DNA of 64,000 bases. Origin: Desulfuromonadales bacterium. GTDB lineage: Bacteria; Desulfobacterota; Desulfuromonadia; Desulfuromonadales; JACZKF01. This document shows positions 42,397 to 57,426 of this stretch, piece after piece (position 1 is the stretch's first letter; each line of letters opens with the position of its first letter). Location: assembly GCA_029289095.1 (NCBI GenBank), contig JARFUG010000007.1, positions 9,297-73,296 of the forward strand, written 5' to 3'. The position numbers were made by a program, and so were the translations under genes. The notes below the pieces were generated by a model. That model was not told where the DNA came from, did no database searches, and saw only the letters and a list, made by a program, of their open reading frames with translations.

Positions 42397-42855
42397 TCAG
42401 GTGCGCTCCAGCGCTTCCTTTCTCGGCAGGGTCTTTTGCGCATAGGACCAGATATTGAGCTGCTCCAGGGCGTAGAGCGCCAGACCTGCGAAAAAGACCC
42501 CCATGAAATGCCCCTCCAGGGCTCCTGCAAAGAGATAGAAGGGGTAGAAGACGGTTCGGAAGAAAAGGTGCAGCCAGTTCGATGACGGTTTCTGAGCGCC
42601 CGCGATGCGCCCCAGGATCAGTACGGCGGCAGAAAAGGTATAGGCGCCCACCGCGACGCTCGTCATGGCGACCGGGGGAGCCGCCCCCAGGATCATCCGG
42701 GCGCTTTCCCCCAAGGGGGCGAGCAGATCGGCCCCGCGGGAGAAGAAAAATATGGTGCTGACCAGCAGGAAAAGAGAGAGATCGCAAAGGCCCCGCCTGC
42801 ACAGGGCGTGGAGATCGGCGCCGGTCCTGTCGGTTGGATTCCTCTGGCGTTTCAT
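42397..42855 (-). CDS. Hypothetical 4-TM membrane protein; last gene of the cytochrome c/b operon
   Basis: 152 aa and hydrophobic. The gap to the cytochrome b gene is only 9 nt. Confidence 0.55.
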   Translation of the reverse strand: MKRQRNPTDRTGADLHALCRRGLCDLSLFLLVSTIFFFSRGADLLAPLGESARMILGAAPPVAMTSVAVGAYTFSAAVLILGRIAGAQKPSSNWLHLFFRTVFYPFYLFAGALEGHFMGVFFAGLALYALEQLNIWSYAQKTLPRKEALERT

Positions 42856-42864
42856 GATGTCCTC

Positions 42865-43542
42865 CTAGCCGTGATGTCCGCTCTCGAGAGTCGTTTCGCT
42901 TTCGTGCTCGTCGATCTCTTCCCATCCGTTCCACATCGGCTTGAAATAGGCCAGCGGCGTCTTGCCCAGGGTCGCCAGGTAGAGGTGCGTGAAGAGGAAG
43001 GCGAACATGGCGCACGAGAGCAGGAAGTGGATGCCGACGAGGATCTTCAGCCCGCCGATGAGCAGGACGATTTCCCGCAAGGGGGCGATGTTCATCAGCA
43101 GAATTCCGCTCAGGCTCACCAGGGGCATGAGGACGAACATGATGGCCAGGTAAGCCGACTTCTGCAGCGGGTTGAACTTGTTGTCCGGGGTGGGATGATG
43201 CGGGCTCGGCTTGCCCCGGAAGTAGTTGAAGAAGTAGTAGACGCTCTGTCGCAGCAGGCCGTGGCGCAGGTCGTCGCTGCTGGGCACGTAGAGCTGCGTC
43301 ATCTTGCGTGCGATGCAGGTGTAGTAGAAGAACCAGAAGGTGAACGAGAGCGCCACGAGAATCCCCGCCGTGTTGTGCAGCTCGATCGCCGCCTTGTAGC
43401 TGCCGAAGAGGTTGATGTATTCCGGGAACCGGATCTGCGCTCCCGACAGACCGAGAGTGACGATGCCCAGGGCGTTGAGCCAGTGCCAGATGCGCACCGG
43501 GGTCGGCTGCAGATAGACGCGTTTGCTGCTGTGAGTGGTCAT
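42865..43542 (-). CDS. Di-heme b-type cytochrome membrane subunit (PhsC / cytochrome b561-like; CbcB-like)
   Basis: 225 aa with 4-5 TM helices and conserved His residues (RIWHWLNA, ELHNTAG, GIHFLLS, FTHLY). Confidence 0.8.
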   Translation of the reverse strand: MTTHSSKRVYLQPTPVRIWHWLNALGIVTLGLSGAQIRFPEYINLFGSYKAAIELHNTAGILVALSFTFWFFYYTCIARKMTQLYVPSSDDLRHGLLRQSVYYFFNYFRGKPSPHHPTPDNKFNPLQKSAYLAIMFVLMPLVSLSGILLMNIAPLREIVLLIGGLKILVGIHFLLSCAMFAFLFTHLYLATLGKTPLAYFKPMWNGWEEIDEHESETTLESGHHG

Positions 43543-43554
43543 GGCTTCGGCTCC

Positions 43555-44607
43555 TTATCGTCGGTTCTTGCGGGTCAGAAATCGCAGCGTTCCGTGCCCC
43601 ACCGGCATGATCAGTCCGGCGGCCAGGATCGCCAGCCCGATATAGTTGAGGGTGGCGCTGCGGGTCGCTCCCACGATGTAGAAGTCGGGGGTCCCGTACA
43701 GGACATCGAGAACCGCCCCCTTCTCCACCGCAAGGCGTTCAAAGGAGCCGTCCTGGCGCGGGAAGGCGACGAAGCTCGTCTGCATCGCTCCGGGGCCGGA
43801 GGCGTGACAGAAGGTGCAGTCCCATCGGTTGGCGAGGATGCCGAAGTCGTGGGTGACGATCTCCGGAGTGAGCATCCCCTTGAGTCGCAGGTTGCGATTG
43901 TCCCTGTTGCGGTTGAAGCTCCGGAGCTCGGCCAGGGAGATGAAACCGTCGCCGTCGGTGTCGATCAGAGAAGAGATCTTCTCCTGCTCGCTCAAGAGTT
44001 TGAGATCTTCATATCCGGCGAGTTCAAAGGGGAGTCCCCGCGCCGGCGCTCCCGAGTCCGGGTGGAGCGGGCGTCGGGTGAGATACAGGGAGATGACGAT
44101 ATTCTCCGAGCCCGAATGGCAGGAGATGCACGGCAGCATCTCCAGGTGAAGAGCCGCCTGCGGCAGCCAGCTCCCATGGGAACGTACAAGGCCGGAGGTC
44201 TCGTGGCAGACGGCGCAGTTGCGGTTCATGTCGTGCCCGGAGATCGTCGTCGGCCCGCGCACGAGGTGGGGGTTGTGGCAGTCGCCGCAGTCGGCATATT
44301 GGGCGTGTCCGCTCTGGGCGTATTCTTCGTAGATGTCCTGATGGCAATCGAGGCAGCCGGCCCTGGACAGAGGCTGGCCGTCGTCGGGATGATCCCAGGT
44401 GACCGATTCGTGGCAGGCCACGCACCCCAGCCCCGCATGCGCGGTGGTGTCATAGCGCAAAGGATCGATCACGTAGGCGTCTCCCACCATCCCCGCATCG
44501 GCGTGACAGCTCACGCAGCTCTCGTCGTCCATCGCCGCCGTTTCAACCGGGGCGGCCAACCAGAGTGCCGCCAGCCCCAGAGAGAGAAATCCGATTTTGC
44601 GTCCCAT
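43555..44607 (-). CDS. Heptaheme c-type cytochrome with an internal EF-hand and a C-terminal TM anchor (CbcA-like)
   Basis: Signal peptide. Seven CXXCH motifs: CVSCH, CVACH, CLDCH, CGDCH, CAVCH, CISCH, CTFCH. DTDGDGFISLAE lies between hemes 6 and 7. C-terminal helix LNYIGLAILAAGLIMPV. Confidence 0.88.
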   Translation of the reverse strand: MGRKIGFLSLGLAALWLAAPVETAAMDDESCVSCHADAGMVGDAYVIDPLRYDTTAHAGLGCVACHESVTWDHPDDGQPLSRAGCLDCHQDIYEEYAQSGHAQYADCGDCHNPHLVRGPTTISGHDMNRNCAVCHETSGLVRSHGSWLPQAALHLEMLPCISCHSGSENIVISLYLTRRPLHPDSGAPARGLPFELAGYEDLKLLSEQEKISSLIDTDGDGFISLAELRSFNRNRDNRNLRLKGMLTPEIVTHDFGILANRWDCTFCHASGPGAMQTSFVAFPRQDGSFERLAVEKGAVLDVLYGTPDFYIVGATRSATLNYIGLAILAAGLIMPVGHGTLRFLTRKNRR

Positions 44608-44638
44608 GTTTTCCTCCGGTGAGGTTAATGCGTGTGGA

Positions 44639-44878
44639 TCAGCGCAGGGTCTGCCGGCACGACTCTTTCTTCCTCGTTGCGGACTCGCTCAGGAACTGCC
44701 AGAGGGCGACCAGGGCCGCATAGAGCTGCGCCACAACGATGATCGCGCAATACGCCAGGAAGAACTTGATGGTCAGTCCGCTGAAACCGTCCATGACGGT
44801 TCCTCCCGGGAAGGGGGTGAAGAAGAAAAATGCGAAGAGCAGCAGCATCATCCCTAGCCAGTAGATCTGTCGTTTCAT
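44639..44878 (-). CDS. Small two-TM membrane protein (79 aa)
   Basis: SD GAGGAG lies upstream. Hydrophobic segments WLGMMLLLFAFFFF and FFLAYCAIIVVAQLYAALVAL. Confidence 0.5.
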   Translation of the reverse strand: MKRQIYWLGMMLLLFAFFFFTPFPGGTVMDGFSGLTIKFFLAYCAIIVVAQLYAALVALWQFLSESATRKKESCRQTLR

Positions 44879-44956
44879 GGCTGTATCTCCTCATCGTCGC
44901 GGCGCCGGCGAAAAAGCCGCAGATGGCGCTCCCTCCTGCCGTTGGCCGGCTCTTTC

Positions 44957-45199
44957 CTACTTGCGGGTGACCGATTCCACGGGAGCGAGCTCTTGGCTCT
45001 CCTGTTGCTGGCGTGCGGCCTTTCTGGCGCTGCGCAGAGCGGGGAGGACCTGGGCCAGAACGATCAGGGCGCAGAAGCCCAGAAAGATCAGAACGACCAG
45101 TGAACTGTTGTCCTTGCGCGCCTCGGCGGCGGCCAGGGCTGGGGAAGCCAGGGCCGAGAATGCGACTGCTGCGATGACTGCCGTCAACTTCTCTTTCAT
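44957..45199 (-). CDS. Small secreted/single-TM protein, family member A (80 aa)
   Basis: MKEKLTAVIAAVAFSALASPALAAAEA (signal peptide), then SSLVVLIFLGFCALIVLAQVLPAL. Its closest relative in the window is the ORF at 52531-52779. SD AAGGAG lies upstream. Confidence 0.65.
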   Translation of the reverse strand: MKEKLTAVIAAVAFSALASPALAAAEARKDNSSLVVLIFLGFCALIVLAQVLPALRSARKAARQQQESQELAPVESVTRK

Positions 45200-45225
45200 C
45201 TTTTTTCTCCTTTTGCGCATGGCGG

Positions 45226-45627
45226 TTAATGGATGCTCAGCACGTTTAGGACATTTCTGAAAGCGCATTCGACAGCGGTGCGGATTTCCTCGCCGTCGCG
45301 GGCGTTCACCGGTTTGAGGGAGTGATAGAAAATCCCTTCGCGGCGGATCTTCTGCATGATCGGAAGAGGTTTTTCATCGGAAACAAGGATGATGGTCAAA
45401 GACCGATCACACCTCTTCATCAAGGGGATAAGGTCCTCGGCGCCGACCTTCTCGTCGAAATCGCTCCCGACCAGCACGACATGGGGCTTGTTCTTCAGGA
45501 GGTCTCCCAGGACATCCACGGCCGAATCGGTGGTCCTCACCTCGTATCCTGCCCGGGAGAGAACATTTGCAATGAGCCTGCGGGTGGCGGTATCCCGGTC
45601 GGCCAGGAGAACGCTTTTCTCTTTCAT
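45226..45627 (-). CDS. Stand-alone receiver-fold protein lacking the phospho-acceptor Asp (pseudo-receiver), copy 1
   Basis: 133 aa. A gapless alignment to the canonical REC at 46095-47504 places Gly (VVLVGSD) where Asp (VIFLDVR) sits. The Ser/Thr (IILVS) and Lys (LKP) positions are retained. Confidence 0.75.
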   Translation of the reverse strand: MKEKSVLLADRDTATRRLIANVLSRAGYEVRTTDSAVDVLGDLLKNKPHVVLVGSDFDEKVGAEDLIPLMKRCDRSLTIILVSDEKPLPIMQKIRREGIFYHSLKPVNARDGEEIRTAVECAFRNVLNVLSIH

Positions 45628-45657
45628 GGCTGCCTCGCTTCGGCTTGCAGGGACCTC

Positions 45658-45894
45658 TCAACTCTCCTTGCCGGTGCGCACCTGCGCTTTTTTCCCGCGG
45701 AAGAATTCCCGCACCAGCGCACCGAAGAGCATCATCGCAGGGACGATCTGAAGGGCGATAATGGCGGCGATGAAAAGGAAGAAGATGGCGGGCATCAGAT
45801 TGCCCTCCCCTCCGACTCCCGCCAGGGAACCGAAGAAAATCGTTCCGTACGCGACCAGGGCGACGATGAAGCAACTGATGAATTTCTCTTTCAT
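45658..45894 (-). CDS. Small secreted/single-TM protein, family member B (78 aa)
   Basis: MKEKFISCFIVALVAYGTIFFGSLAGVGGEGNLMPAIFFLFIAAIIALQIVPAMMLF. Its closest relative is the ORF at 51812-52048. SD AAAGGAGGAAGG lies upstream. Confidence 0.65.
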   Translation of the reverse strand: MKEKFISCFIVALVAYGTIFFGSLAGVGGEGNLMPAIFFLFIAAIIALQIVPAMMLFGALVREFFRGKKAQVRTGKES

Positions 45895-45938
45895 GACCTT
45901 CCTCCTTTCACGGTGTCGGCGTTTGCTCTTGTGTAAGA

Positions 45939-45954
45939 GCAACGCCCGTACCCA
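45939..45954 (-). promoter_or_regulatory. Candidate sigma-54 promoter of the small-protein / pseudo-receiver / cytochrome c-b operon
   Basis: The minus strand reads GGGTAC-GGGCG-TTGCT. The invariant GG and GC are present with exact N10 spacing, and the TTGC -12 box is present. It lies 45 nt upstream of ATG 45894. Confidence 0.55.
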
Positions 45955-46046
45955 CGGGAGAAAGAAATCGAACGATTTCAAAACAGCTTGGTTTTCAACA
46001 GGTTGGCGCTATGGCTGGAGCAGGGGAGGGGAGATTTTATTCCTGC

Positions 46047-46087
46047 CCCACGGGAAAATTCCTGCCGGAGAGGAATTTTCCCGTGGG
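46047..46087. promoter_or_regulatory. 16-bp perfect inverted repeat (candidate enhancer-binding-protein UAS and/or terminator of the upstream activator gene)
   Basis: CCCACGGGAAAATTCC-N9-GGAATTTTCCCGTGGG. It sits 7 nt past the stop at 46095 and about 95-135 bp upstream of the -24 element at 45953. Confidence 0.6.
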
Positions 46088-46094
46088 ATGGGAA

Positions 46095-47504
46095 TCAGCC
46101 CGATCTCTCGATTCGGTGCTTTTTCAGCAACGCATAGAGGCGGGATTGGGAAAGGCCGGACAGACGACAGGCTTCGGGAATGTTCTCTTCAGCCAGCGCC
46201 ATCAATTCCTGCAGGTAATGCTTTTCAGCCTGGGTATAGACGTTGTCGCGATAATCCTGAAGCTTCGGGAGTCTCCTCAGGGGTTGTTCGGAAGCGGCTT
46301 CATCCGGAAGTGCATTCCGGCGCACCGAGTGGCGCATGATCTCGGCGCGGAAGGACGGAGGGAGGTGTTTGGGGTAGAGAGTCGGTTCGAAACGTGCTGC
46401 GGAAAAGGCGCGCACCAGGGTGTTCGCCAGTTCGCGCACATTGCCGGGCCAGTGATAGGTGAGCAGGGCGTCGAGGAATTCGGGGGAGAATCCTTTGGAC
46501 GCCACGCCGTCCCCCTCACAGAGCCGGTCGATATGGATCCTCGTCAGTTCCCGGATGTCCTCGGCGCGCTCGCGCAAGGGGGGGAGCTCGATGGTGAAGG
46601 AGCGGAGGCGAAAAAGCAGATCGCTGCGAAACAGATTCCTGGCCACCATATCGTCCAGGTCGCGGTTGGTCGCGGCCACCAGCCGGAAGTCGCTCTCGAC
46701 CTCGCGGGTGCTCCCCAGCGGACGGAAGCGCCTCTCCTGCAGAACCCGCAGGAACGTCTTCTGAACCGATAGAGGGAGTTCGCCGACTTCATCGAGAAAG
46801 AGGGTGCCGCCGTGCGCCTGCCGAACGAGACCTTCCTGCGGTTTTTCCGCGCCGGTGAACGACCCCTTCTCGTGGCCGAAGAGGAGGCTTTCGGCCAGTG
46901 TTTCGGGCAGGGCCGCGCAGTCGACGATGACGAAATTCTTTTCCGCCCGCGGGCTGTTGCGGTGAATCGCCTGGGCGAAGAGCTCTTTGCCCGTCCCCGT
47001 CTCACCGGTGATCAGAATGCTGGCATCGCTGGCCGCCGCCTGGGCGAGCAGATTCAGGCAGGCCTTGAGCTTGGGGCTGTTGCCGCAGATGTCCTCGCGC
47101 TTGAGCGCAACGATGTTCTGCCTTGGGTCGGACTTCTTCTCGCGGCGGTACTGCAGGGCGCGCTCCAGCGAAAGGGTGATCTCCTTGCTCGAGGAACCCT
47201 TCTCGATGTAGTCCCAGGCGCCCGATTTCATCGCCAACTCCGCCCCGTCCGGCTCGCCGAAGCCGGTGATGATGATCACCTCGGGGTTCGAGGCTGCCTG
47301 GGCGAGGCGCGGCAGCGCCTGCAGGCCGTTGCCGTCTGGCATGCGCACATCGAGAAAGATCACGTCGAAATCCTCCGAGGCGCTCTTCTCGAGCCCCTCG
47401 GTCAGGCACGACGCACTGGCCACCTCGTGCCCCAGGCGCGAAGCCATGAGGGAGAGCGACGAGACCATCAGATCATCGTCATCGATGATCAGCACCTTAG
47501 CCAT
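46095..47504 (-). CDS. Sigma-54-dependent response regulator (REC-AAA+-Fis HTH), activator 1
   Basis: REC domain (LIIDDDD...VIFLDVRMPDG), GETGTGKE, GSFTGA, and C-terminal HTH (IPEACRLSGLSQSRLYALLKK). Confidence 0.9.
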   Translation of the reverse strand: MAKVLIIDDDDLMVSSLSLMASRLGHEVASASCLTEGLEKSASEDFDVIFLDVRMPDGNGLQALPRLAQAASNPEVIIITGFGEPDGAELAMKSGAWDYIEKGSSSKEITLSLERALQYRREKKSDPRQNIVALKREDICGNSPKLKACLNLLAQAAASDASILITGETGTGKELFAQAIHRNSPRAEKNFVIVDCAALPETLAESLLFGHEKGSFTGAEKPQEGLVRQAHGGTLFLDEVGELPLSVQKTFLRVLQERRFRPLGSTREVESDFRLVAATNRDLDDMVARNLFRSDLLFRLRSFTIELPPLRERAEDIRELTRIHIDRLCEGDGVASKGFSPEFLDALLTYHWPGNVRELANTLVRAFSAARFEPTLYPKHLPPSFRAEIMRHSVRRNALPDEAASEQPLRRLPKLQDYRDNVYTQAEKHYLQELMALAEENIPEACRLSGLSQSRLYALLKKHRIERSG

Positions 47505-47561
47505 TGCGACCCTCCCGAGTCCCAGCCGTTACGGTCTTTTTTCCCTGTCCTCCGTCTTCGG

Positions 47562-49937
47562 TCATCTGTCCTCTTTCCCGCTCTTCTCATTCCCCCCCCC
47601 GTCCAGAACGCGACGGATGATCCGCGCCATCTCGCTCCTTTCCGTCGGTTTCATGACGACCTCGCGGATGCCGATGGTGCGTGCGATCTTTTCGGTGACG
47701 CCGCTCTGGGAAAAGGAGCCCAGACCGGTGCAGAGGATGACGGGGATGTCGGGGCGCAGGGCGAGGACCTCCAGCGCAAACCTCTCTCCCGTCAGATGGG
47801 GCATTGTCTGGTCGGTGATGACGAGATCGAAGCGATCGGGCTGAGCCCGGAAGACTTCCAGGGCCTCCAGGCTGCTCGTCCCAGCGACGACTTCGTAACC
47901 GAGGTTCTCCAGCATCCGCTGGTTGGACGAGACGATATCGGCCTCATCGTCGAGAAACAGGATGCGCTCCTTCCCGCCGGGTGGCGGAGGCGATGCCGGA
48001 TACTCCTGCTCTGCGTCGCCTGCCGCATCACAGCGGGGCAGATAGACCCGGAAGGTCGTCCCCACCCCCGGTTCGCTGGTGACGTCGATCGCCCCGCCGT
48101 GGCTTCTGACGATGGCGTGGACCACCGAAAGGCCCAGGCCCGTTCCTCGCCCCGGCGCCTTGGTGGTGAAGAACGGGTCGAAGATGCGCTCCATCGTCTT
48201 TCGGTCCATCCCGTGCCCCGTGTCGGCAACGCTCAGACAGACGTAGCGCCCGGGGGGGAGCCCCATCGAGTTGTCGCTCCCCAGATCGCTGTTGCCCATG
48301 AAGATTTCGAGTCGCCCCCCATGCTCCTGCATGGCGTCGGCGGCGTTGGTGCACAGGTTCATGATGACCTGGTGGATCTGCGAGGTGTCGGCGTGGACGA
48401 AGCCGATCCCGTTGGTCCGGTGCAGAGGGATCTCGATCGTCGTCGGGAGGGAGGCTCGCAGCAGCTTCAGACACTCCCTGGCGATCAGATCGATGCGTAC
48501 CGGCTGACGCTCCTCTTCCTTCTGGTAGCTCAGGGTGAGGATCTGGCGCACGAGACTCCTGGCCCGGAACCCCGCCTTCAGAACGATTGCCAGATGCTCC
48601 CGCAGCGCCGAGCCTTCCGGGGCGTCATCCATCGCCATTTCGGTGTTGGTGATGATGGCTGCCAGGATGTTGTTGAAGTCGTGGGCGATCCCTCCGGCGA
48701 GCGTCGCGATCGCCTCCACCTTCTGGGCCTGGCAGAGCTGCCTTTCGAGCTGGACTTCGTAGGTGAGATCCCTCACGACGGCGGCGTAGGCCGTCGTCCC
48801 CGATGGTTCGCTCACCGGCGAGACTTTTACCTCGATGTCGTACAGGGTTCCGTCATTCCGGCGGTTCGCCAGGCGTTCGAAGCGACTCTGTCCGGTGTGG
48901 ACAGCATCGCTCATGATCTGGAAAAAGGATCTGTTCGTCCCGACCTTCTCGACATTGCGCACGTTTCTTCCAATCAGCTCTTCCCGGCCGTACCCGCTGA
49001 TCGTTTCGAAAGCCGGGTTGACGTAGTGAATGAACCCTGCGGTATTGAAGGTGAGGATGCCGTCGGTTTCCTGCTCGACGATCGTCGCCAGCAGGGTCCT
49101 CTCCCTTTGCGTGCGCTCCTTGTCGCGGCGCATCCGCAGCGTGGCGATGCCGTAGGCGAGATCGTCGGCAAGCCCCTTGAGGAGATCGAGTTCCCGACCG
49201 TCGAAGGCGTCGGGCTCGCCGGCGAAGATGACCAGAGCGCCGATGACCCGGGCCTCGATGCTCAACGGGAGTGAGGCCGATGATGCGTAACCGAGCCGCA
49301 GGGCCTTTTCGCGCCATGGCCCCCACTTCCTGTCGGTTAGTATATGGCGTGCGATGTGCGGCTCCGCCGAGCGGATGGCGTGGCCGGTCGGTCCCTGGCC
49401 CAGTTCGTCGTCTCCCCACGAGACGCGGATCGATTCGAGGTATCCGTGCTCGTCCCCCCATTGAGCCGCAGGTCGGACGGTCTTCTGGGCGTCGTTTTCG
49501 GCCAGTCCGACCCAGGCCAGGCGATATCCCCCCGACTCGACGATGATGCGGCATACATCGGTCATCAGGGCCTGCTCGCTTTCGGCGCGCACAACGAGCT
49601 GACTGCAGTCGCTGCGCGCCTTCAGTGCGCGATTGACCCGGTGAAGCGTCTGCTGAGAGGCGAGGAAGTTATTTTCCGTATTGCGGATCAGGTAAAACAG
49701 GAAGCCGCCGGTGAAGATCAGGCCGGCATAGCACAGGATGTATTCTGCCCGGCGAACGCTTTCCGACAGGATGAGCCACTCCGAAAAGAAAAAGAGGGTG
49801 GAGAAGATCCAGACGGCTGCGATCAGGAGGTAGATCGTGGTAATCGGAAGAGTGTCGGCCCTCGCCTGGAGTTGCATGCTCACCTGCTCAGTCGACGTCA
49901 GTTGGTATTTCCCCGACCCGCAACCCTGCAAAGACAA
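47562..49937 (-). CDS. Hybrid sensor histidine kinase (TM-GAF-PAS-HisKA-HATPase-REC)
   Basis: N-terminal TM helices, a GAF-like region, PAS domain (ETDGILTFNTAGFIHYVNPAF), H-box GGIAHDFNN, G-boxes DTGHGM / GTGLGL, and C-terminal REC (ILFLDDE...LVITDQTMP). The start is uncertain (49937 or 49877). Confidence 0.88.
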   Translation of the reverse strand: MSLQGCGSGKYQLTSTEQVSMQLQARADTLPITTIYLLIAAVWIFSTLFFFSEWLILSESVRRAEYILCYAGLIFTGGFLFYLIRNTENNFLASQQTLHRVNRALKARSDCSQLVVRAESEQALMTDVCRIIVESGGYRLAWVGLAENDAQKTVRPAAQWGDEHGYLESIRVSWGDDELGQGPTGHAIRSAEPHIARHILTDRKWGPWREKALRLGYASSASLPLSIEARVIGALVIFAGEPDAFDGRELDLLKGLADDLAYGIATLRMRRDKERTQRERTLLATIVEQETDGILTFNTAGFIHYVNPAFETISGYGREELIGRNVRNVEKVGTNRSFFQIMSDAVHTGQSRFERLANRRNDGTLYDIEVKVSPVSEPSGTTAYAAVVRDLTYEVQLERQLCQAQKVEAIATLAGGIAHDFNNILAAIITNTEMAMDDAPEGSALREHLAIVLKAGFRARSLVRQILTLSYQKEEERQPVRIDLIARECLKLLRASLPTTIEIPLHRTNGIGFVHADTSQIHQVIMNLCTNAADAMQEHGGRLEIFMGNSDLGSDNSMGLPPGRYVCLSVADTGHGMDRKTMERIFDPFFTTKAPGRGTGLGLSVVHAIVRSHGGAIDVTSEPGVGTTFRVYLPRCDAAGDAEQEYPASPPPPGGKERILFLDDEADIVSSNQRMLENLGYEVVAGTSSLEALEVFRAQPDRFDLVITDQTMPHLTGERFALEVLALRPDIPVILCTGLGSFSQSGVTEKIARTIGIREVVMKPTERSEMARIIRRVLDGGGNEKSGKEDR

Positions 49938-49986: not shown

Positions 49987-51399
49987 TTACGAAGTCGGGC
50001 CTTCGCGTCCGGAGATCCCCTGTTTTTTCAGCAAAGCCTGAAAGTTGGGGCGCAGCATGCCGACTTCCTTGGCCGCCCGGGTGACGCTCCAGTCGTTGCG
50101 GTTGAGCGCCTCCAGCAGGAAGGCCCGCTCCAGCGATTCCACCGCACGCACGCGCAACTGGCGTTTTTTGAGTTTGAGCTCTTCATGGCTGTGGGGGATG
50201 TGATCGAGCGGGGAGGCCCTTTCCTCCCCCGGGGGGTGCAGTTCGAGATCTTCGCGCTGGATGAATTCCTCCTCGGTCAGGACGACCGCCCTCTCGATGA
50301 GGTTCTCGAGCTCCCGGACATTGCCGGGGAAGTGGTAATTCTCGAGCATCCTGAGAGCTTCGGGGGCGATCCCCTTGATTTCCTTGCCGAGCTCCTCGGC
50401 GAAGTGCTTGATGAAATGCGCCGTGAGCAGGCGCAGGTCCCCCGATCTCTCGCGAAGCGGAGGCAGGTCTATGGGGATGATGTTGAGGCGGAAAAAGAGA
50501 TCGTCCCGAAATTTCCCTTCGGCGACGAGGTCCCGCAGGTTGCGGTTGGTGGCCGCCACGAGGCGGATGTTGATCGGAACGGGTTGCGTCCCCCCGATGG
50601 GGGTCACCTCGCGCTCCTGAAGCACTCGCAGCAGCTTGGCCTGGGTGGTGAGACTGATGTTGGCGACCTCGTCGAGAAAGAGGGTGCCGTTGTCGGCGAT
50701 CTTGAACAGGCCGGACTTGGTCTGGACCGCTCCGGTGAAGGAGCCCTTGACGTGGCCGAAGAGTTCGCTCTCGAGCAGGTTCTCCACCAGTGAGGTGCAG
50801 TCGACGGCGACAAAGGGGTAATCGCGCCTTGCGCTGTTGCGATGGATCGCCTGGGCGACGAGTTCCTTGCCCGTTCCGCTTTCGCCGGTGATCAGCACGG
50901 TGCTGTCGGTCGGGGCCACCTGCAGGATGCGCCGGTAGACTCGCTCCATCTCGCGGCTGGCGCCGATGAAGCGGTCGAATCCCTTGAAGTCCCTCAGCTC
51001 TTTTCTGATGTAGATGTCGTCGAGGAGGATGACCTTCTGCTCCAGCGCCGACTGAACCTTCTCGGCGATCTCCTCGGGAGTGAAGGGCTTGGCGATGTAG
51101 TCGACGGCGCCGTTCTTCATCGCCTCGACTGCCGTGTCGACCGTCGAGTACCCCGTGATCATGATGATCGGGACTTCGGGCTGGGTGGTTTTGATGTGTT
51201 TCAGAACTTCGATGCCGCTCATGCCGGGCATCTTCAGGTCGGTAATGACCAGGCCGAACTGCTGCGTGGTCATTCTTTCAACAGCCAGCGCGCCGCTGGC
51301 GAACAGTTCGACCGAATATCCCCTCCCCTCGAGGATGCGCCGCAGTCCCTGCCGGATCACGGCATCGTCATCAACAACCAGAATGTTGAGCTTTTCCAT
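49987..51399 (-). CDS. Sigma-54-dependent response regulator (REC-AAA+-Fis HTH), activator 2
   Basis: [12 protein letters not shown]...[24 protein letters not shown], and C-terminal HTH ([21 protein letters not shown]). SD GAGGAG lies upstream of ATG 51399. Confidence 0.9.
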
Positions 51400-51707
51400 C
51401 CGGCAGGCTCCTCGTATAGGTGCAAACAGTGCAAACAAAATCCCTCTAGAAACAATTTAATTGTGCCTAATGCAGTCTAATGTAGCAATTTTTGCGAGTC
51501 AAGGGATAAAAGCCGCTTCCCTGGGGGTGTATAGCAGAATCATACACTGTCGAAAGAGGAATGGAAGCATAGAAAAAACGTGCAGATGCACATTTTTCCG
51601 CGATTCCCGCCGGCCTTCGCTTCTGACGGGGGTGCACAAATTTTTTATACGTTCCAGAGGGCAACGCGACGAGAGCGAAAGTTCTTCTGGCCGGAATAAG
51701 CTCGTAA

Positions 51708-51720: not shown

Positions 51721-51737
51721 AATAATGTGTTTGCAAG

Positions 51738-51753
51738 TGGCACGCCCTCTGCA
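51738..51753 (+). promoter_or_regulatory. Sigma-54 promoter of the small-protein / pseudo-receiver / c3-FeS-NrfD operon
   Basis: TGGCACG-CCCT-CTGCA with exact GG-N10-GC spacing, 60 nt upstream of ATG 51812. Confidence 0.7.
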
Positions 51754-52099: not shown

Positions 52100-52486
52100 A
52101 TGCTGGGACTTCTCATCGCAGATGAAAATGTGGAATCCAGAAAACAGATGGCCGACCTTTTCATCGAGGCGGGATACAACGTAACCGTGACAAACTCGGC
52201 CGCCAACGCACTCTATGGAATTCTCAAGAGAACAGCTCAGGTCGTGATCCTGAGCAGCCAGTTCGACGAGATTACGGCCACGGAGCTCATCCCCATACTC
52301 AAGAAATGCAACCGCAAGCTCACTATCATCCTGGTTTCCGGCGACCTGTCTCTGTCTCTGCTTCGAAAGGTCCGAAAGGAAGGAATTTTCTACCACGCTC
52401 TCAAGCCGGTGGAGCCCGAAGATCGAGAGGAGATCCGACAGGTCGTCCAGTGCGCCTTCAACAACCTGTCAAGTTCGATGGTTTAG
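52100..52486 (+). CDS. Stand-alone pseudo-receiver, copy 2
   Basis: 128 aa, colinear with the protein at 45226-45627 (LIPxxKxCxRxLTIILVS, EGIFYHxLKPV, EEIRxxVxCAF). Ser occupies the phospho-acceptor position (VVILSSQ). Confidence 0.75.
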   Translation: MLGLLIADENVESRKQMADLFIEAGYNVTVTNSAANALYGILKRTAQVVILSSQFDEITATELIPILKKCNRKLTIILVSGDLSLSLLRKVRKEGIFYHALKPVEPEDREEIRQVVQCAFNNLSSSMV

Positions 52487-52530
52487 GCGGAACACAGGTT
52501 CCGGTATTCAATTTTCGAAAGGAGAACGCC

Positions 52531-52779
52531 ATGAAAAAGCCCGCAACGCCCCTCATGACTGTCTGCATGCTCCTGGCGGCAGCCCCCGCATTTGCCGTCG
52601 ACACGACCCAGGTTTACAGCAGCGGCATTCTGGTCCTCGTATTTCTCGGGATCTGCGCCCTGTTCGTCGTCTCTCAACTGATTCCCGCCATGATGATGCT
52701 TTTGGGGATGGTCAAGGGGGTCTTCAAAGGCAAGAGGATCGAAGCGGTCGCCGAGGCCGAGAAGAAGAATCTGGGCTGA
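52531..52779 (+). CDS. Small secreted/single-TM protein, family member D (82 aa)
   Basis: MKKPATPLMTVCMLLAAAPAFAVDT (signal peptide), then SSGILVLVFLGICALFVVSQLIPAMMM. SD AAAGGAG lies upstream of ATG 52531. Confidence 0.65.
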   Translation: MKKPATPLMTVCMLLAAAPAFAVDTTQVYSSGILVLVFLGICALFVVSQLIPAMMMLLGMVKGVFKGKRIEAVAEAEKKNLG

Positions 52780-52818
52780 GTGCAGCAACCGACGTTCACA
52801 CCTAAGGGAGGTTTCTCC

Positions 52819-52998
52819 ATGGATGCCATCATGTCGCGGTTTTTAAACTCGGTCGGTGAATACAAGAGCGTCTACACCCTGGTCGACTTCTACCAGTACA
52901 TCAAGGGGGTGGAATACCTCCTGATCGTCGCTTTCTTCATCGTCTTTGTGAAGTATTTCAAATATATCGACGCGCCGCAGCAGAAGAAGGAGCACTGA
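52819..52998 (+). CDS. Small single-TM membrane protein (59 aa)
   Basis: SD AAGGGAGG lies upstream of ATG 52819. Hydrophobic helix YLLIVAFFIVFV. It occupies the same operon position as the ORF at 44639-44878. Confidence 0.45.
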   Translation: MDAIMSRFLNSVGEYKSVYTLVDFYQYIKGVEYLLIVAFFIVFVKYFKYIDAPQQKKEH

Positions 52999-53045
52999 GG
53001 CCGCGGCGCTTCAGACGTTTACTCACAAGCGGAGGAGAGATCGCA

Positions 53046-53534
53046 ATGCATACAAAACGCAAATGGTTGGTTGGCGCAATCGTTCTGGCCGCCCTCTGGA
53101 GCGCCCCTCTCGAGGAAGGTGCAGCGCAGGATTTTCCCGAATTCATCGAACTGGATTCCCTGAGTGATCTCTACGGTCCGGTCCCCTTCGATCATCTGAT
53201 GCACCTCGATTTCGGGAGCTGCGCCGATTGCCACCATCACGGCACGGGCGTTCCGGTGCAGGATGCAAACTGCGCCCGCTGTCACAGCAACGCAGAGACG
53301 GTGCCGATCATCAGTTGCAAAGAGTGCCACGCACGCGATCCCTTCTCAGCCACGGATATCCGGGAGAAAGAGGCAGATCTCCACCTCTATCATCGCGACA
53401 AGCCGGGGCTGAAGGGGGCCTATCACCTGAGCTGTCTCGGATGCCACGAAGAAATGGGCGCCCCGACCGGGTGCAACGACTGTCACGTCAGGACCAAGGC
53501 GGGCGAGGCCTTCTTCCGGGGCGGCCCCCGGTGA
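53046..53534 (+). CDS. Periplasmic c3-type (class III) multiheme cytochrome, five CXXCH motifs
   Basis: Signal peptide, then CADCH, CARCH, CKECH, CLGCH and CNDCH within 162 aa. Confidence 0.85.
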   Translation: MHTKRKWLVGAIVLAALWSAPLEEGAAQDFPEFIELDSLSDLYGPVPFDHLMHLDFGSCADCHHHGTGVPVQDANCARCHSNAETVPIISCKECHARDPFSATDIREKEADLHLYHRDKPGLKGAYHLSCLGCHEEMGAPTGCNDCHVRTKAGEAFFRGGPR

Positions 53535-53617
53535 TCGGCTGGGCAGGGGAGCGCCGGCACCGAGCGTGAATCCGGCGGTTTGCGCAAGCGACTCGAAATA
53601 GAGCGAGGAGATAGATC

Positions 53618-54553
53618 ATGAAAGGAATCAGTCGAAGAAGGTTTCTGGCGGCTAGTCTGGCCGGAGGCGCGGCGACAACGCTGAGCGTGACGAAGGAAGC
53701 CTGGGGAGCCTCTTCGTTTGACGGCTACCCGGACGGAATGGGGGTCCTGGTCGATCTGACCCGGTGCGTGGGGTGCCGCTCCTGCGAGGCGGCCTGCAAC
53801 AAGGAGCAGAATCTTGCCGCTCCGGCCGAGCCCTTTGACGATATGTCGATCTACGACAAGCGCTTTCACGGGCAGAAGCGCCGCACCGACGAAAACTCCT
53901 ATACCGTGGTGAACCGCTACGAGAAGGACGGAGCCAAACCGGTCTATCGCAAGATCCAGTGCAACCACTGCAACGAGCCGGCATGCCTGACCTCCTGCTT
54001 CACCAGCGCCTACAAGAAGACAAAAGAAGGGGCGGTCACCTACAACTCAAAGGTCTGCGTCGGCTGCCGCAACTGCATGGTCGCCTGCCCCTTCGCGATC
54101 CCGGCCTACAGTTACTCGAGCGCCTTCAACCCCGAGATCAAAAAATGCGTCTTCTGCCACGAGACCCGGCTCAAGAACGGACAGCCCCCGGCGTGCGTCG
54201 ATGCGTGCCCCCAGGAGGTGATGACCTTCGGAAGGCGAAGAGACCTGATCAAGATCGCCAACGACCGGATCCGCACCCGGCCGGGACGCTATGTCGACCA
54301 CATCTACGGTGAGCACGAGGTCGGCGGCACAGCCTGGCTCTATCTTTCGGATCGCCCCTTCGAGGAGGTCGGTTTCGACACTACGCTGAGCAAGGAGCCG
54401 ATCATCTCCAACGTCAAGGGATTTCTCTCGACGGTGCCGATGGTCCTGGCCATCTGGCCGGCCCTTTTCACCGGATTCCATCTGCTGTCCAAGAAGCAGG
54501 ACCACGGACACGGAGAGCACGCCCACTCGGCGCAGGAGGAGGACGAAAAATGA
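53618..54553 (+). CDS. Tat-exported 4x[4Fe-4S] ferredoxin subunit (NrfC/HybA/PsrB-like) with C-terminal TM anchor and His-rich tail
   Basis: Twin-arginine signal SRRRFLAAS. Cys clusters CVGCRSCEAAC, CNHCNEPAC, CVGCRNCMVACP and CVFC...CVDACP. Helix VPMVLAIWPALFTGF. Tail DHGHGEHAH. Confidence 0.85.
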   Translation: MKGISRRRFLAASLAGGAATTLSVTKEAWGASSFDGYPDGMGVLVDLTRCVGCRSCEAACNKEQNLAAPAEPFDDMSIYDKRFHGQKRRTDENSYTVVNRYEKDGAKPVYRKIQCNHCNEPACLTSCFTSAYKKTKEGAVTYNSKVCVGCRNCMVACPFAIPAYSYSSAFNPEIKKCVFCHETRLKNGQPPACVDACPQEVMTFGRRRDLIKIANDRIRTRPGRYVDHIYGEHEVGGTAWLYLSDRPFEEVGFDTTLSKEPIISNVKGFLSTVPMVLAIWPALFTGFHLLSKKQDHGHGEHAHSAQEEDEK

Positions 54554-55899
54554 AACGGCACATTATGCATGGCGGCAAAATCGTCGATTCCGAGTACAAG
54601 TCCGAGGAGAACGAGGCGAAGAAAAAGTGGAGCCTCATGGAGAAGCTCCTTCTCGGCCTGACGCCGCGCCAGTACCTGGCCCAGGCGATACGAAATCCGT
54701 TCAACTGGATCCTGGCGGCGATCTTCGCCATCGGAATCCCTCTGATCCTCGGCCGGTTCGTCTTCGGACTGCACTGGATCACCCACAGCTCCAACGATTA
54801 TCCCTGGGGCCTGATCCTCGCCTTCGGACTTTTCACCATGGTGCCGCTGTCGGCCTCGGGGTTCATGCTCGGCACGGCGGTGGAGATCTTCGGCCGCCAC
54901 GACTTCCACCCCATCGAGCGCCTGGCTCTGCTCAACGGCCTGCTCGGTTACTTCTTCGCCGTCATCTTCCTGATGGTCGACCTCGGACAGCCTTGGCGTC
55001 TGCCCTACCCGATGGTCGTCTCCTTCGGAACGGCCGCCGTCCTCTTCCTCGTCGCCTGGCACGTCGCCACCTACCTCTCGGTGCAGATCGCCGAGGTCTC
55101 GGTCTCCTTCTTCGAGTGGATCGGCTGGCCGCAGGGGGCGAAGTTCATCCGCAAGATCATCGTCGGGCTGACCGTGGCGGGGATCATCCTCTCCACCCTG
55201 CACCAGGGCGCCCTGGGCGCGCTCTTCACCTACGCCCACGGCAAGCTTCACCCCCTGTGGTACTACGCCTCATTTCAGTGGATCTACTTCTTCTGCTCCG
55301 CCATCCCCGCCGGCCTGTGCATGGTCATTGCGGTGAGCACCATCGTAAAGAAGACAATGGCCTGGCGCTGCGACGACAACTTCATGGACAACCTCGATTC
55401 GCTCACCCTGAAGCTGGCCAAGGGCGCGAGCCTGGGTCTGATCACCTACCTGGCCATCAAGATGATCGGGGTCGCCCATTACAACCTGTGGGGTTATCTG
55501 GCCACCGGTTGGGGGCAGTGGTACCTGCTCGAGATGTTTGTCGGCGTCGTGCTCCCCATCGCCCTGTTCGGCTACGCTCTGCGGCACAACAAGGCGGGGC
55601 TCGCCCGGTTCACCGCATTCCTGACGATCTTCGGCGTCGCGCTGAACCGGATCAACACCAGCCTGATCGCCTACAATTACAAGATCTATCACGAGATCCC
55701 TCACTGGCGTGAAGTCATCGTGACCCTGACGATCTTCGCCATCTACATCGTGGTCTACCGCTTCATCCTCTACCGTCTGCCGATCCTCTACACCTGGAAG
55801 ACGGCGCCGCAGACCGCCGAAGAAACGGTCGAAGAGCCGGTCTACATCCACTCGGGAGCGGAGCCGAGGCCGGTCAGCATGTATCGGGAAATGAAATGA
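54550..55899 (+). CDS. NrfD/PsrC-family polytopic quinol-interacting membrane subunit
   Basis: 449 aa with about 10 TM helices. The start overlaps the FeS-subunit stop (ATGA), the typical partner arrangement for NrfC-like proteins. Confidence 0.8.
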   Translation: MKRHIMHGGKIVDSEYKSEENEAKKKWSLMEKLLLGLTPRQYLAQAIRNPFNWILAAIFAIGIPLILGRFVFGLHWITHSSNDYPWGLILAFGLFTMVPLSASGFMLGTAVEIFGRHDFHPIERLALLNGLLGYFFAVIFLMVDLGQPWRLPYPMVVSFGTAAVLFLVAWHVATYLSVQIAEVSVSFFEWIGWPQGAKFIRKIIVGLTVAGIILSTLHQGALGALFTYAHGKLHPLWYYASFQWIYFFCSAIPAGLCMVIAVSTIVKKTMAWRCDDNFMDNLDSLTLKLAKGASLGLITYLAIKMIGVAHYNLWGYLATGWGQWYLLEMFVGVVLPIALFGYALRHNKAGLARFTAFLTIFGVALNRINTSLIAYNYKIYHEIPHWREVIVTLTIFAIYIVVYRFILYRLPILYTWKTAPQTAEETVEEPVYIHSGAEPRPVSMYREMK

Positions 55900-55984
55900 G
55901 ACAGTCCATCGCCGGCGGGTTCGCCCCGCCGGCGGATCGCAGCGACAAGGGCCTGATCACGGAAACCGGAAAAGGAGCTGGGCT

Positions 55985-56863
55985 ATGTTACGGAACCTGA
56001 CGGCAAGGGCGATCGTCCCCGTGGCCATGACTGTGACTGGATTCGTCCTGGTCTGCTGCATCCTCCTGTACGCCGTCATCAAGGGGGACATGACCCGCAG
56101 CACGATCCAGCATTCGGTGAGTCTGGCCGACACCGTCATGAAGTCGACCCATTACGCCATGCTGCGCGACGACCGCGAGAGTCTCGGCAACATTATCGTC
56201 AACATCGGCGAGCAGCAGGGGATCAAACACCTCAGGATCTTCGACAAGGCGGGAATCGTGCGCTTCTCTCACCACCCCGAAGACAACGGTCACGAGGTCG
56301 ACATGACCTTCTCCGGATGCCTGGGGTGTCATATGGAGCCCGTGCCCAAGGAGACCCTCGAGGCGATGCAGCAGGCGCGCAAGTTCAGCGCCGAAGACGG
56401 CAGCCATGTCCTGGCCATCACCGCCCCCATCTACAACCAGCCGGTCTGTTTCGCCGGGGACTGCCACGCCCATCCCCCCGAACAGCAGATCCTCGGCATC
56501 CTCGACATCGGCCTCGATCTCACCCCGCTCGAGCGCAACCTCGCCGAGATGCGCGGCCGCATGGCCGTCTTCACGGTGATGGTTCTGCTCCTCACCCTGG
56601 GGGGCGTTGCGGCCCTGCTGCGCAGGAGCGTGATTCTGCCGATTCAGACCCTGGCCGTCTTTACGGAGCGCGCACTTAATGATACTGTTGTGGGTGAGTT
56701 CCCTCACAAGGAAGGGGAGATCGCCGAAATCGCCGCCAACGTCAAACGGCTGCACTTCCGGCTGGTCGAATCGGACAAGGAGTTGGCCCGCAGGCGAAGA
56801 GGGCCGCAGCAGGGCTCGGGGGCGGGCAGCGAGTCCGAAGGCGGTGACACTCGACACGAGTAG
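55985..56863 (+). CDS. Membrane sensor-like protein: TM, periplasmic heme-c domain, TM, HAMP; no output domain
   Basis: TM1 is IVPVAMTVTGFVLVCCILLYAVI. The periplasmic region has CLGCH and CFAGDCH (CX4CH). TM2 is MAVFTVMVLLLTLGGVAALL. A HAMP-like segment follows (ILPIQTLAVFTERA...EGEIAEIAANVKRL), then a short low-complexity tail. Confidence 0.65.
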   Translation: MLRNLTARAIVPVAMTVTGFVLVCCILLYAVIKGDMTRSTIQHSVSLADTVMKSTHYAMLRDDRESLGNIIVNIGEQQGIKHLRIFDKAGIVRFSHHPEDNGHEVDMTFSGCLGCHMEPVPKETLEAMQQARKFSAEDGSHVLAITAPIYNQPVCFAGDCHAHPPEQQILGILDIGLDLTPLERNLAEMRGRMAVFTVMVLLLTLGGVAALLRRSVILPIQTLAVFTERALNDTVVGEFPHKEGEIAEIAANVKRLHFRLVESDKELARRRRGPQQGSGAGSESEGGDTRHE

Positions 56864-56880
56864 GCCGGAAGCGAGTCCCC

Positions 56881-57426
56881 ATGGCGATCCCGAGAAAAAA
56901 AAAGGGGCGGGACGGGATCTCTCCCCGTGAAGAGCTGATAGAGAAGATCCGTCGTCTCGAATCGCGCGCCGCCCGGGGGCTCTGGGCCATGGCCGGCTTC
57001 ATGGCGATGAGCATCGCCGCCTGGCGCTATCCCGACCCCTTCTCACATCTACCCGAGCGGGCGGCGGCCATCCTCGGCGCCCCCCCGCCCACGGGACTGA
57101 TCAGCGCCGCCCTGATCGTCTATATCTTCTCCGCCATCATCCTCATCCTCACCCGCATGGCGACCGGCGCCGAGGCGGGGGTCGGCTTCAACCACGTCGG
57201 CTACCTGACCGGATTCTACTTCTTCTATTCGGTGGCCGGCGCCATGGGGGAGAACTTCTGGGCCGTCCTCGTGGCCGGGATCACCATCCTTTCCCTGCAG
57301 AGCTACCATCTGTGGACGTATTGCGCCGAACAGGTGCGCAACGACAAAGAGACCCTCGCCGCCCTCGAGCGCAAGGAAAAGTTCGCTTCGCTCTACTCGC
57401 CCGAGTCCCGGGAAGGCGAACCGTAG
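56881..57426 (+). CDS. Hypothetical 4-TM membrane protein; last gene of the c3-FeS-NrfD operon
   Basis: 181 aa with a hydrophobic core and charged termini. It lies 17 nt after the preceding gene. Confidence 0.5.
   Translation: MAIPRKKKGRDGISPREELIEKIRRLESRAARGLWAMAGFMAMSIAAWRYPDPFSHLPERAAAILGAPPPTGLISAALIVYIFSAIILILTRMATGAEAGVGFNHVGYLTGFYFFYSVAGAMGENFWAVLVAGITILSLQSYHLWTYCAEQVRNDKETLAALERKEKFASLYSPESREGEP

Follow-up and report, generated by a model that had tools for sequence, protein, structure and literature searches.

CbcBA is the pathway for Geobacter respiration near the thermodynamic limit. In Geobacter sulfurreducens, it is required for respiration below about -0.21 V and is induced late in Fe(III) reduction (10.1101/2021.04.15.440034). 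Induction of its operon, GSU0597-GSU0593, depends on BccR (Joshi, Chan & Bond 2021, 10.1101/2021.04.15.440034), and the sigma-54 promoter of the operon was assigned bioinformatically and by transcriptomics (10.1101/2021.04.15.440034). Three genes precede cbcA (seven haems) and cbcB in this system, also termed cbcBA/Cbc5: GSU0597, GSU0596 and GSU3489, which are co-regulated in published G. sulfurreducens work and labelled ‘hypothetical’ (GSU0597 and GSU3489) or ‘response receiver’ (GSU0596) in the literature. A different composition is found in Cbc3 (CbcVWX) and in the Hmc membrane module (HmcB/HmcC) of sulfate reducers, which combine a five-haem cytochrome, an iron-sulphur (FeS) protein exported by twin-arginine translocation (Tat) and an HmcC/NrfD subunit; CbcX is annotated with ‘5 heme binding sites’ (PMC7894505). 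Here, a counterpart of the first system and one of similar composition to the second are described in a single locus of 19 protein genes, which occupies positions 42397-57426 of a 64-kb stretch of contig JARFUG010000007.1 from a Desulfuromonadales bacterium (the whole stretch is referred to as the window).

The locus is organized as a predicted two-branch sigma-54-dependent regulon for Geobacter Cbc-type quinol:cytochrome c oxidoreductases. A central operon encoding an activator, a hybrid histidine kinase and a second activator (act1-kinase-act2) lies between two target operons. Both target operons contain the same leader trio at the 5' end, in which a gene for a receiver-like protein (pseudo-receiver) is placed between genes for two small membrane proteins, tm1 and tm2, and both end with a CbcE-like gene. 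The exchangeable core in between consists of CbcA and CbcB on the left and of smR, a five-haem cytochrome, an FeS protein and an HmcC-like subunit, with a CbcD-like protein, on the right. By itself the regulon layout has good support; together with the reading of the trio as a membrane-tethered regulatory adaptor, taken as one statement, it is assigned a probability of about 0.5.

Two operons with a common frame and exchangeable cores

The left operon represents a known type. Its tmB-recL-tmA genes, behind a GG-N10-GC element at 45938-45954, match the order GSU0597-GSU0596-GSU3489, and the succession hypothetical-response receiver-hypothetical-cbcA-cbcB behind a sigma-54 promoter is common to both. 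The CbcD-like gene, the CbcE-like gene and the adjoining NtrC-family activator of the G. sulfurreducens system are also present in the window, whereas its 12-haem CbcC has no counterpart there. The two systems differ in their control regions. The activator of the G. sulfurreducens operon is divergent and of the BccR type, whereas the left operon of the window follows the kinase and act2 on the same strand and carries a leader of a different type (L type) and different upstream sites (GCAGGAAwwTTCC). The BccR-like act1, the other leader type (R type), the TGTAT-N9-ATACA dyads and the CbcD-like gene belong instead to the Cbc3-like right operon. An earlier note on this DNA had likened the left half to the BccR-regulated cbcBA locus. 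The likeness to GSU0597-GSU0593 stands, but by synteny and score the BccR-type activator, the leader type and the upstream site of the Geobacter sensu stricto cbcBA operon match the right flank of the window. G. hydrogenophilus and strain AOG1 show that arrangement, which agrees with the map published for G. sulfurreducens. The left half is already known as an operon type, save for its non-divergent activator.

All 19 genes listed in that note were confirmed at or near their listed positions on the open reading frame (ORF) map. Each starts with ATG, and a GGAG-type ribosome-binding site is recognizable in all except act2, the kinase and memR. The domain descriptions were likewise borne out by Pfam, NCBIfam and CXXCH counts, with one exception. 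The right-hand protein described as ‘heme/HAMP’ contains a CXXCH motif, but Pfam found no HAMP domain and only weak Mcp40H-20_sensor and sCache matches. This CbcD-like protein has transmembrane (TM) segments at residues 10-28 and 194-212, and its gene precedes the CbcE-like gene in Cbc3-like and Geobacter cbcBA operons alike.

In the left core, CbcA is anchored by a C-terminal hydrophobic segment (residues 318-336) and gives multihaem and weak EF-hand matches in Pfam. CbcB is encoded directly downstream and matches NF011582 below its curated cut-off (E = 7e-36). CbcA residues 216-227 form a canonical EF-hand-like loop, DTDGDGFISLAE, which scores just below the Pfam EF-hand threshold and is found with a strict pattern in 12 of 40 CbcA homologues. 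The loop is a hint that this periplasmic multihaem cytochrome may bind Ca2+.

The right core unites the five-haem cytochrome c, the Tat FeS protein and the HmcC/NrfD-type subunit in one operon, as in Cbc3 and Hmc, and adds the trio, smR and the CbcD- and CbcE-like genes. The HmcC-like subunit reaches 338 bits against NF045714, below the curated equivalog cut-off of 550. Its homologues are named only polysulfide reductase or HybB-like, with no Cbc3-named protein among them, and membership in Cbc3 is therefore one of composition only. The two cores thus differ as the earlier note had stated, but its ‘two unrelated machines’ are not wholly unrelated. Both end in a CbcE-like gene that had been overlooked, and these genes, memL and memR, are paralogues (Smith-Waterman score 187, z = 32), so that the operons share a tail as well as a head. 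memL is conserved after cbcB in L-type loci. Some relatives contain an extra c7-repeat multihaem gene, CbcC-like, between the core and the CbcD-like gene (L041, 13548-14561; L023, 12460-13747); the window has no gene at this position.

For comparison, one genome per species was scanned, which revealed 317 places with a relative of the pseudo-receiver. The best 80 of the 317 were examined (loci designated L with a number), the window proteins were mapped onto them, and 109 pseudo-receiver sequences were clustered. Almost all loci belong to Geobacteraceae or Desulfuromonadales. Three lie in bins labelled Syntrophales, Syntrophus or Draconibacterium (L035, L039, which is a 1-kb contig, and L077) and are probably mis-binned Desulfuromonadota DNA, not a true spread of the module.

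Four layouts are observed. Layout I has the order kinase-act2-tm1-pseudo-receiver(L)-tm2-(smL)-cbcA-cbcB-memL. In layout II, act1 is divergent from tm1-pseudo-receiver(R)-tm2-smR-c3-FeS-HmcC-CbcD-like-memR. In layout III, act1 is divergent from tm1-pseudo-receiver(R)-tm2-cbcA-cbcB-(CbcC)-CbcD-like-memR. Layout III is found in Geobacter sensu stricto (G. hydrogenophilus, strain AOG1 and others) and equals the published G. sulfurreducens map, bccR / GSU0597-GSU0596-GSU3489-cbcA-cbcB, then cbcCDE. Layout IV, of the Trichlorobacter type, consists of two tandem leader units and a tm-tm pair without a receiver-like gene downstream of act1-kinase (L036, L041 from Trichlorobacter thiogenes, L046, L051-L053, L056, L063 and L074). 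In layout IV, each leader unit has its own sigma-54 element wherever the first tm gene was identified, and in several loci (for example, L041, L046, L056, L063 and L074) the tm-tm pair lies on the opposite strand past the act1-kinase operon. The first leader unit of L041 is followed by small ORFs, among them one of 155 residues that may be HAD-like, to guess from its sequence.

Layouts I and II stand back-to-back, as in the window, in L007, L009, L010, L011, L015, L037, L044 and L055. The two-flank layout accordingly occurs in at least eight other species-level genomes, including those of Citrifermentans bremense (R1, L044) and Geomonas (diazotrophica, L055). A second, fragmented cbcAB/pseudo-receiver copy with several short ORFs per gene lies beside the intact one in L013 (5216-8357), and it represents either a decaying duplicate or assembly indel errors. 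L-type pseudo-receivers occur only with cbcAB and memL, and R-type ones with the Cbc3-like core (43 cases) or with cbcAB and CbcD/E (8 cases). Since the R-type leader pairs with either core, the frame of leader, activator and tail is separable from the core. Among the relatives, the trio heads either core and synteny with sigma-54 activators is conserved.

The leader trio and its pseudo-receiver

The leader genes of the two operons are paralogous. recL and recR align over their full length with a Smith-Waterman score of 300 (shuffles, 27 ± 5), and tmB-tmC and tmA-tmD score 83 and 96, respectively (shuffles, ~27). Within the window alone, position specificity is weak, given cross scores of 83 (B-C), 65 (B-D) and 91 (C-D). 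Across related loci, the best cross-type match of a first-position tm protein is a first-position tm protein in 24 of 24 cases, and that of a second-position protein is a second-position protein in 21 of 22. By sequence matching, these counts are decisive for a position-specific orthology of tm1 and tm2. They settle the earlier observation that B resembles C and A resembles D, and the paralogy scores and synteny uphold the view that a three-gene leader was duplicated, gene for gene, ahead of two quinol:cytochrome machines that differ from each other.

The four tm proteins and smL constitute one family of ~80 residues each. Their N-terminal hydrophobic segment closes with AxA and is joined by a short loop to a second helix, which contains a Q-x-x-P motif; tm2 also has a conserved Cys inside the helix. 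The fourth gene of the left operon, smL, is therefore not only the small membrane protein noted earlier but also a third tm-family member (z = 8.6 against tmA and 8.0 against tmD, Smith-Waterman). It is seen in the clade of the window (L003-L012). smR is unrelated to the tm family by Smith-Waterman comparison and invariably precedes the five-haem cytochrome in Cbc3-like operons.

That the leader ORFs are not genes, but either a conserved RNA leader that is not translated or hydrophobic reading frames arisen by chance in GC-rich DNA, has next to no probability. Such an explanation would suit the finding that tm, smL, smR, memL and memR match no Pfam or NCBIfam family even at E = 5, and shuffle-based z-scores are inflated by hydrophobic composition. 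However, each small leader ORF is preceded by a strong Shine-Dalgarno sequence, and the same ORFs are called by independent gene callers. A profile of the four tm proteins retrieves 550 representative clusters among 1.84 billion proteins, nearly all of 75-85 residues. Codon variation of the tm genes across related loci is greatest at position 3 and least at position 2. An Rfam scan of 41.5-58 kb found no RNA family, which argues against an RNA leader. Small leader ORFs as artefacts are ruled out by positional orthology, codon pattern, length conservation and in-frame fusions to the pseudo-receiver.

The pseudo-receiver passes the Pfam receiver threshold (PF00072). The AlphaFold2 model of recL (predicted local distance difference test score, 81) adopts a (β/α)5 fold of five strand-helix units, with β3 ending at G54. 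Its top Foldseek matches are receiver domains, including Spo0F, DivK and NtrX (TM-score 0.7-0.87); Protein Data Bank searches by sequence and fold returned ordinary receivers only and no special relative. recR has homologues in 902 clusters. As to a possible descent of the pseudo-receiver from the receiver of the adjacent activator, recR scores somewhat higher against the act1 receiver (92) than against CheY (43), but recL shows no such preference (60 and 61, respectively). At the position of the phospho-acceptor (CheY D57), all 109 pseudo-receivers contain G, S or A. The residue is G or A in 33 of 33 L-type sequences, and in the R type it is S in 37 and G in 39 of 76, with Ser in recR. The loss of the acceptor is consistent among three independent alignments, namely, a MAFFT alignment that includes CheY, NtrC and the local receivers, the predicted β3 end, and a family profile against Spo0F, in which Spo0F D54 lies opposite Gly. 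Of the acidic pair after β1 (CheY D12 and D13), the first is D or E, and the second is replaced by K, R, E, Q or N. Because the receiver fold is kept and both the acceptor Asp and the second β1 acidic residue are replaced, the label ‘pseudo-receiver’ given in the earlier note is justified. The family also has two nearly invariant Cys residues and an invariant block, R95-x-E-G-I-F-(Y)-H-x-L-(K)-P, that maps to α4-β5.

Alternatively, the protein could be a genuine single-domain response regulator that takes up phosphate at a non-canonical Asp, D56 or D58, and serves as a phosphate sink or relay for the hybrid kinase. D10, D12 and D58, the last in the β3-α3 loop, are nearly invariant; the T87 position is S or T in most sequences and Ser is retained there, the K109 position is K or R in all, and the neighbouring kinase has its own receiver, an architecture often tied to relays. 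Nevertheless, a relay is improbable. In addition to the substitutions at the β3 end in all 109 sequences and at the second post-β1 acidic residue, D56 is unconserved (Q in recR and A, E or G elsewhere), the ORF map and Pfam revealed no HPt protein in the region, and R-type operons exist without a hybrid kinase.

Natural fusions connect the pseudo-receiver to the membrane. Three long tm-family members (219-226 residues), each encoded after a tm1 gene on three independent metagenome contigs from different data sources, are fusions of the pseudo-receiver to tm2. In six genome loci (L025, L030, L037, L044, L055 and L071), the L-type gene regularly takes this fused form; these include the isolates Citrifermentans bremense R1 (L044) and Geomonas diazotrophica (L055). 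These fusions physically tie the pseudo-receiver to tm2 at the cytoplasmic membrane face, and they imply that the first hydrophobic segment of tm2 can span the membrane. The pseudo-receiver probably acts at the membrane. The earlier idea of a membrane-to-cytoplasm device gains support from the fusions.

Promoters, upstream sites and activators

Taken alone, the two -24/-12 elements of the window are moderate matches, and 31 of 100 shuffles reach the same match count. Of 83 leader modules, 96% have an equivalent element with at least 9 of 12 consensus positions ahead of their first tm gene, compared with 6.7% of random segments, and at a threshold of at least 10 of 12 the proportions are 78% and 1.75%. 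The distance from element to start codon is 42-87 nucleotides in nearly all modules; in L-type loci the element lies 43-115 nucleotides upstream of tm1. The two sigma-54 promoters predicted earlier are thus matched across the family. A perfect TGGCAC-N5-TTGC element lies elsewhere in the window, at 20716-20730 (-). Scans for sigma-70 promoters (3 versus 2.8 expected in shuffles) and terminators (18 versus 12.5 ± 3.7 in shuffled sequence) did not define the operon ends.

K-mer and dyad scans of 54 R-type and 19 L-type upstream regions revealed differing conserved sequences, with no top k-mers in common. Of the 54 R-type regions, 53 contain TGTAT-N9-ATACA dyads, which are placed at about -210 and between about -105 and -124; none of the 19 L-type regions has them, and their frequency in random segments is 2.7%. 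The dyad of the window at 51528-51546 is the sole match with at most one mismatch in the 64 kb, and the degenerate dyad downstream of it fits the conserved proximal site class by position. Tandem GCAGGAAwwTTCC repeats 19 bp apart characterize the L type, with 14 of the 19 regions containing the motif, compared with a single one of the 54 R-type regions and 3.1% of random segments.

Both activators combine a receiver (REC) with an AAA+ domain that contains a GSFTGA loop (PF00158, E = 5e-66 and 8e-69). The hybrid kinase has two N-terminal hydrophobic segments and no periplasmic domain. Its orthologues (750-1070 bits) are always encoded directly before act2, and act2 always occurs in the order kinase-act2-L-type operon. 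Orthologues of act1 (590-750 bits) are divergent from R-type operons, including Geobacter sensu stricto cbcBA, and in loci that contain act1 only, a different kinase of ~540 residues accompanies it. These arrangements are good comparative evidence, although not proof, that the kinase and act2 serve the left operon and act1 the right operon. The hypothesis of the earlier note that each activator drives one flank thus finds strong comparative support, each promoter class having its own sites and activator. A sigma-70-like sequence, TTGACT-17-TAGACT, lies upstream of act1 at 51474-51502 (-), beside the distal TGTAT-N9-ATACA dyad, and act1 could regulate its own operon from the same dyad site.

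Table 1. Genes and predicted control elements of the locus, in window coordinates
Feature	Position	Strand	Evidence
memL, CbcE-like membrane protein, final gene of left operon	42397..42855	-	ORF; memR paralogue
cbcB, b-type cytochrome membrane subunit	42865..43542	-	PF01292, E = 7e-28
cbcA, 7-CXXCH cytochrome c with C-terminal TM anchor and EF-hand-like loop	43555..44607	-	Motif count, hydrophobicity, Pfam
smL, 79-residue small membrane protein, tm family member 3	44639..44878	-	Smith-Waterman
tmA, tm2 of L type, 80 residues	44957..45199	-	ATG, AGGAG upstream, two hydrophobic segments
recL, L-type pseudo-receiver, receiver fold without canonical phospho-acceptor	45226..45627	-	PF00072, E = 4e-9
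tmB, tm1 of L type, 78 residues	45658..45894	-	ATG, AGGAGG upstream
Predicted sigma-54 -24/-12 element of left operon, GGGTACGGGCGTTGCT	45938..45954	-	Sequence; equivalents in L-type loci
L-type upstream site, tandem (G)CAGGAAwwTTCC repeats ~19 bp apart	46031..46084	-	Directly past act2 stop codon
act2, REC-AAA+ sigma-54 activator	46095..47504	-	Pfam Sigma54_activat, E = 5e-66; synteny
Hybrid histidine kinase: 2 TM, GAF, PAS, HisKA, HATPase, REC	47562..49877	-	Pfam; alternative start 49937
act1, REC-AAA+-HTH (helix-turn-helix) sigma-54 activator, BccR-like	49987..51399	-	Pfam; synteny
R-type upstream dyad TGTATAGCAGAATCATACA (TGTAT-N9-ATACA)	51528..51546	+	210 nucleotides upstream of -24 element
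Degenerate second R-type dyad, TGCAC-N9-ATACG	51633..51651	+	3 mismatches; 105 nucleotides upstream of -24 element
Predicted sigma-54 -24/-12 element of right operon, TGGCACGCCCTCTGCA	51738..51753	+	11/12 consensus positions; 58 nucleotides before tmC start
tmC, tm1 of R type, 78 residues	51812..52048	+	Paralogy, position-specific matches
recR, R-type pseudo-receiver, receiver fold without canonical phospho-acceptor	52100..52486	+	PF00072, E = 6e-10
tmD, tm2 of R type, 82 residues	52531..52779	+	Paralogy, position-specific matches
smR, 59-residue single-TM protein	52819..52998	+	Conserved in R-type loci, 54-60 bits
c3-type cytochrome, 5 CXXCH, CbcX-like by composition	53046..53534	+	PF02085
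Tat-exported 4Fe-4S ferredoxin-type subunit	53618..54553	+	Fer4_11, E = 1e-17; weak TAT_signal match
HmcC/NrfD-like integral membrane quinol-interacting subunit	54550..55899	+	NF045714, E = 1e-100
CbcD-like 2-TM protein, periplasmic c-haem sensor-like domain, short cytoplasmic tail	55985..56863	+	1 CXXCH
memR, CbcE-like membrane protein, final gene of right operon	56881..57426	+	ORF; memL paralogue

Two further groups of signalling genes lie in the window outside the locus. A sigma-54 activator and histidine kinase pair is encoded at 30851-33622 (-). Genes for a REC-HisKA-HATPase protein, a CheB-like methylesterase and a CheA-like kinase at 57439-61942 (-) directly abut the end of the right operon and together form a chemotaxis-type signalling cluster.

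A candidate membrane-tethered adaptor and its known relatives

In the proposed mechanism, the hybrid kinase and act2 would switch on the left operon via the GCAGGAAwwTTCC repeats, and act1 would switch on the right operon via the two TGTAT-N9-ATACA dyads. The tm proteins, as hairpins or single-pass anchors, would keep the pseudo-receiver at the inner membrane, and it would act as a non-phosphorylatable adaptor that reports the presence or state of the membrane complex or the quinone pool to the kinase/activator pair. Contact would probably occur through the invariant α4-β5 surface, for example, by pairing with a true receiver domain, and expression of the low-potential pathway would be tuned or locked as a result. 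An adaptor is the most likely role because the pseudo-receiver is made only when its operon is on. Further points in its favour are that the receiver fold conserves its signalling face, that the protein is tethered to the membrane, that some transcription units consist of the leader only, that tm pairs accompany act1-kinase operons and that the local kinase lacks a periplasmic domain.

In the main rival reading, the trio and the CbcE-like tail are small structural subunits or assembly/maturation factors that play no part in gene regulation, much like the small accessory subunits of other respiratory oxidases, with the pseudo-receiver as a cytoplasmic scaffold that merely retains the receiver fold. 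In favour of this reading, the trio always precedes the respiratory core and is transcribed together with it, and the same frame, including the CbcE-like gene, surrounds two cores, as would be expected of parts with a general assembly or anchoring task. Moreover, the tm products reside in the membrane and conserve a Q-x-x-P motif and, in tm2, a Cys inside the helix, and the pseudo-receiver lacks the acceptor Asp. In G. sulfurreducens, a cbcBA deletion strain regains Fe(III) reduction when cbcBA is supplied behind the operon promoter but with no leader genes (10.1101/2021.04.15.440034). This complementation is indecisive on the role of the leader because the chromosomal leader genes are still present in the deletion strain. 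A structural role is, however, less likely than the adaptor; points against it are the leader-only units with their own sigma-54 promoter and the core-less tm-tm pairs at act1-kinase in Trichlorobacter-type loci. In addition, the conserved surface of the pseudo-receiver is α4-β5, the face that receivers use for signalling contacts.

Several points weigh against the adaptor and the regulon as drawn here. The feedback role of the pseudo-receiver is read from fold, location and gene order, and the position of the trio at the head of respiratory operons that are very highly expressed, like the shared CbcE-like tail, suits a structural or assembly role just as well. The pseudo-receiver keeps D10, D12, Ser at T87, K/R at K109 and the nearly invariant D58, which make non-canonical phosphorylation conceivable. 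Five of the 19 L-type loci lack the upstream motif of their class or have it in a form that escaped detection, the probable identity of act1 as the BccR counterpart draws on synteny in G. hydrogenophilus and strain AOG1, and the likeness of the right core to Cbc3 is one of composition only. A broader proposal, offered tentatively and judged less likely than not, is that tm1-pseudo-receiver-tm2 constitutes a previously unrecognized class of membrane-tethered pseudo-receivers through which sigma-54 enhancer-binding proteins would respond to the state of the menaquinone pool or of the quinol oxidoreductases in the inner membrane. If so, the trio would help set the redox threshold for the lowest-energy respiratory branches in Geobacter-type bacteria, and one sensor frame would be reused around interchangeable cores, CbcAB or Cbc3-like.

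The literature searched, which includes few subscription-journal papers, gives no function for the leader genes, in agreement with the earlier note. The same literature describes no paralogous leader before a Cbc3-like operon and neither a TGTAT-N9-ATACA nor a GCAGGAAwwTTCC site, and it does not mention a missing acceptor Asp or fusions of the pseudo-receiver to tm2. Paper text and supplements around GSU1645-1653 contain nothing on a leader before Cbc3. In these searches, the trio, its reuse around different cores and the cis-elements are undescribed. The present analysis supplies two TGTAT-N9-ATACA copies as candidate binding sites of the BccR-type activator and GCAGGAAwwTTCC repeats as those of the second activator, together with a cognate GAF-PAS hybrid kinase for the latter. 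It also places a conserved membrane-anchored receiver-like module at the head of the transcripts of both kinds of operon. The shared frame, with cores that can be exchanged, changes how ‘Cbc’ clusters should be compared between genomes. These findings provide direct handles on the control of the lowest-potential respiratory branches, and the leader genes GSU0597, GSU0596 and GSU3489 of the model organism are amenable to existing genetics.

The proteins of the locus have parallels in three groups of known regulators. The KaiA N-domain, FrzS, HP1043 and the plant pseudo-response regulators are pseudo-receivers that act without Asp phosphorylation. Like them, the protein described here has a receiver fold in which the acceptor Asp and one Mg-binding Asp are replaced. 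Unlike them, it is a stand-alone protein of 125-135 residues that is encoded between two small membrane-protein genes, is sometimes fused to one of their products and has a signature of its own, REGIFYHxLKP and two Cys residues. The tm proteins resemble the small membrane feedback regulators of two-component systems, MgrB and SafA of PhoQ, in being encoded within the regulon on which they might feed back. This likeness is one of gene context, with no sequence relationship, and here two or three paralogues are accompanied by a receiver-fold partner. The activators conform to the NtrC family of enhancer-binding proteins, which use tandem upstream dyad sites, in their REC-AAA+(GSFTGA)-HTH architecture and in candidate dyads that are ~100 bp apart and lie 100-210 bp upstream of the -24/-12 element.

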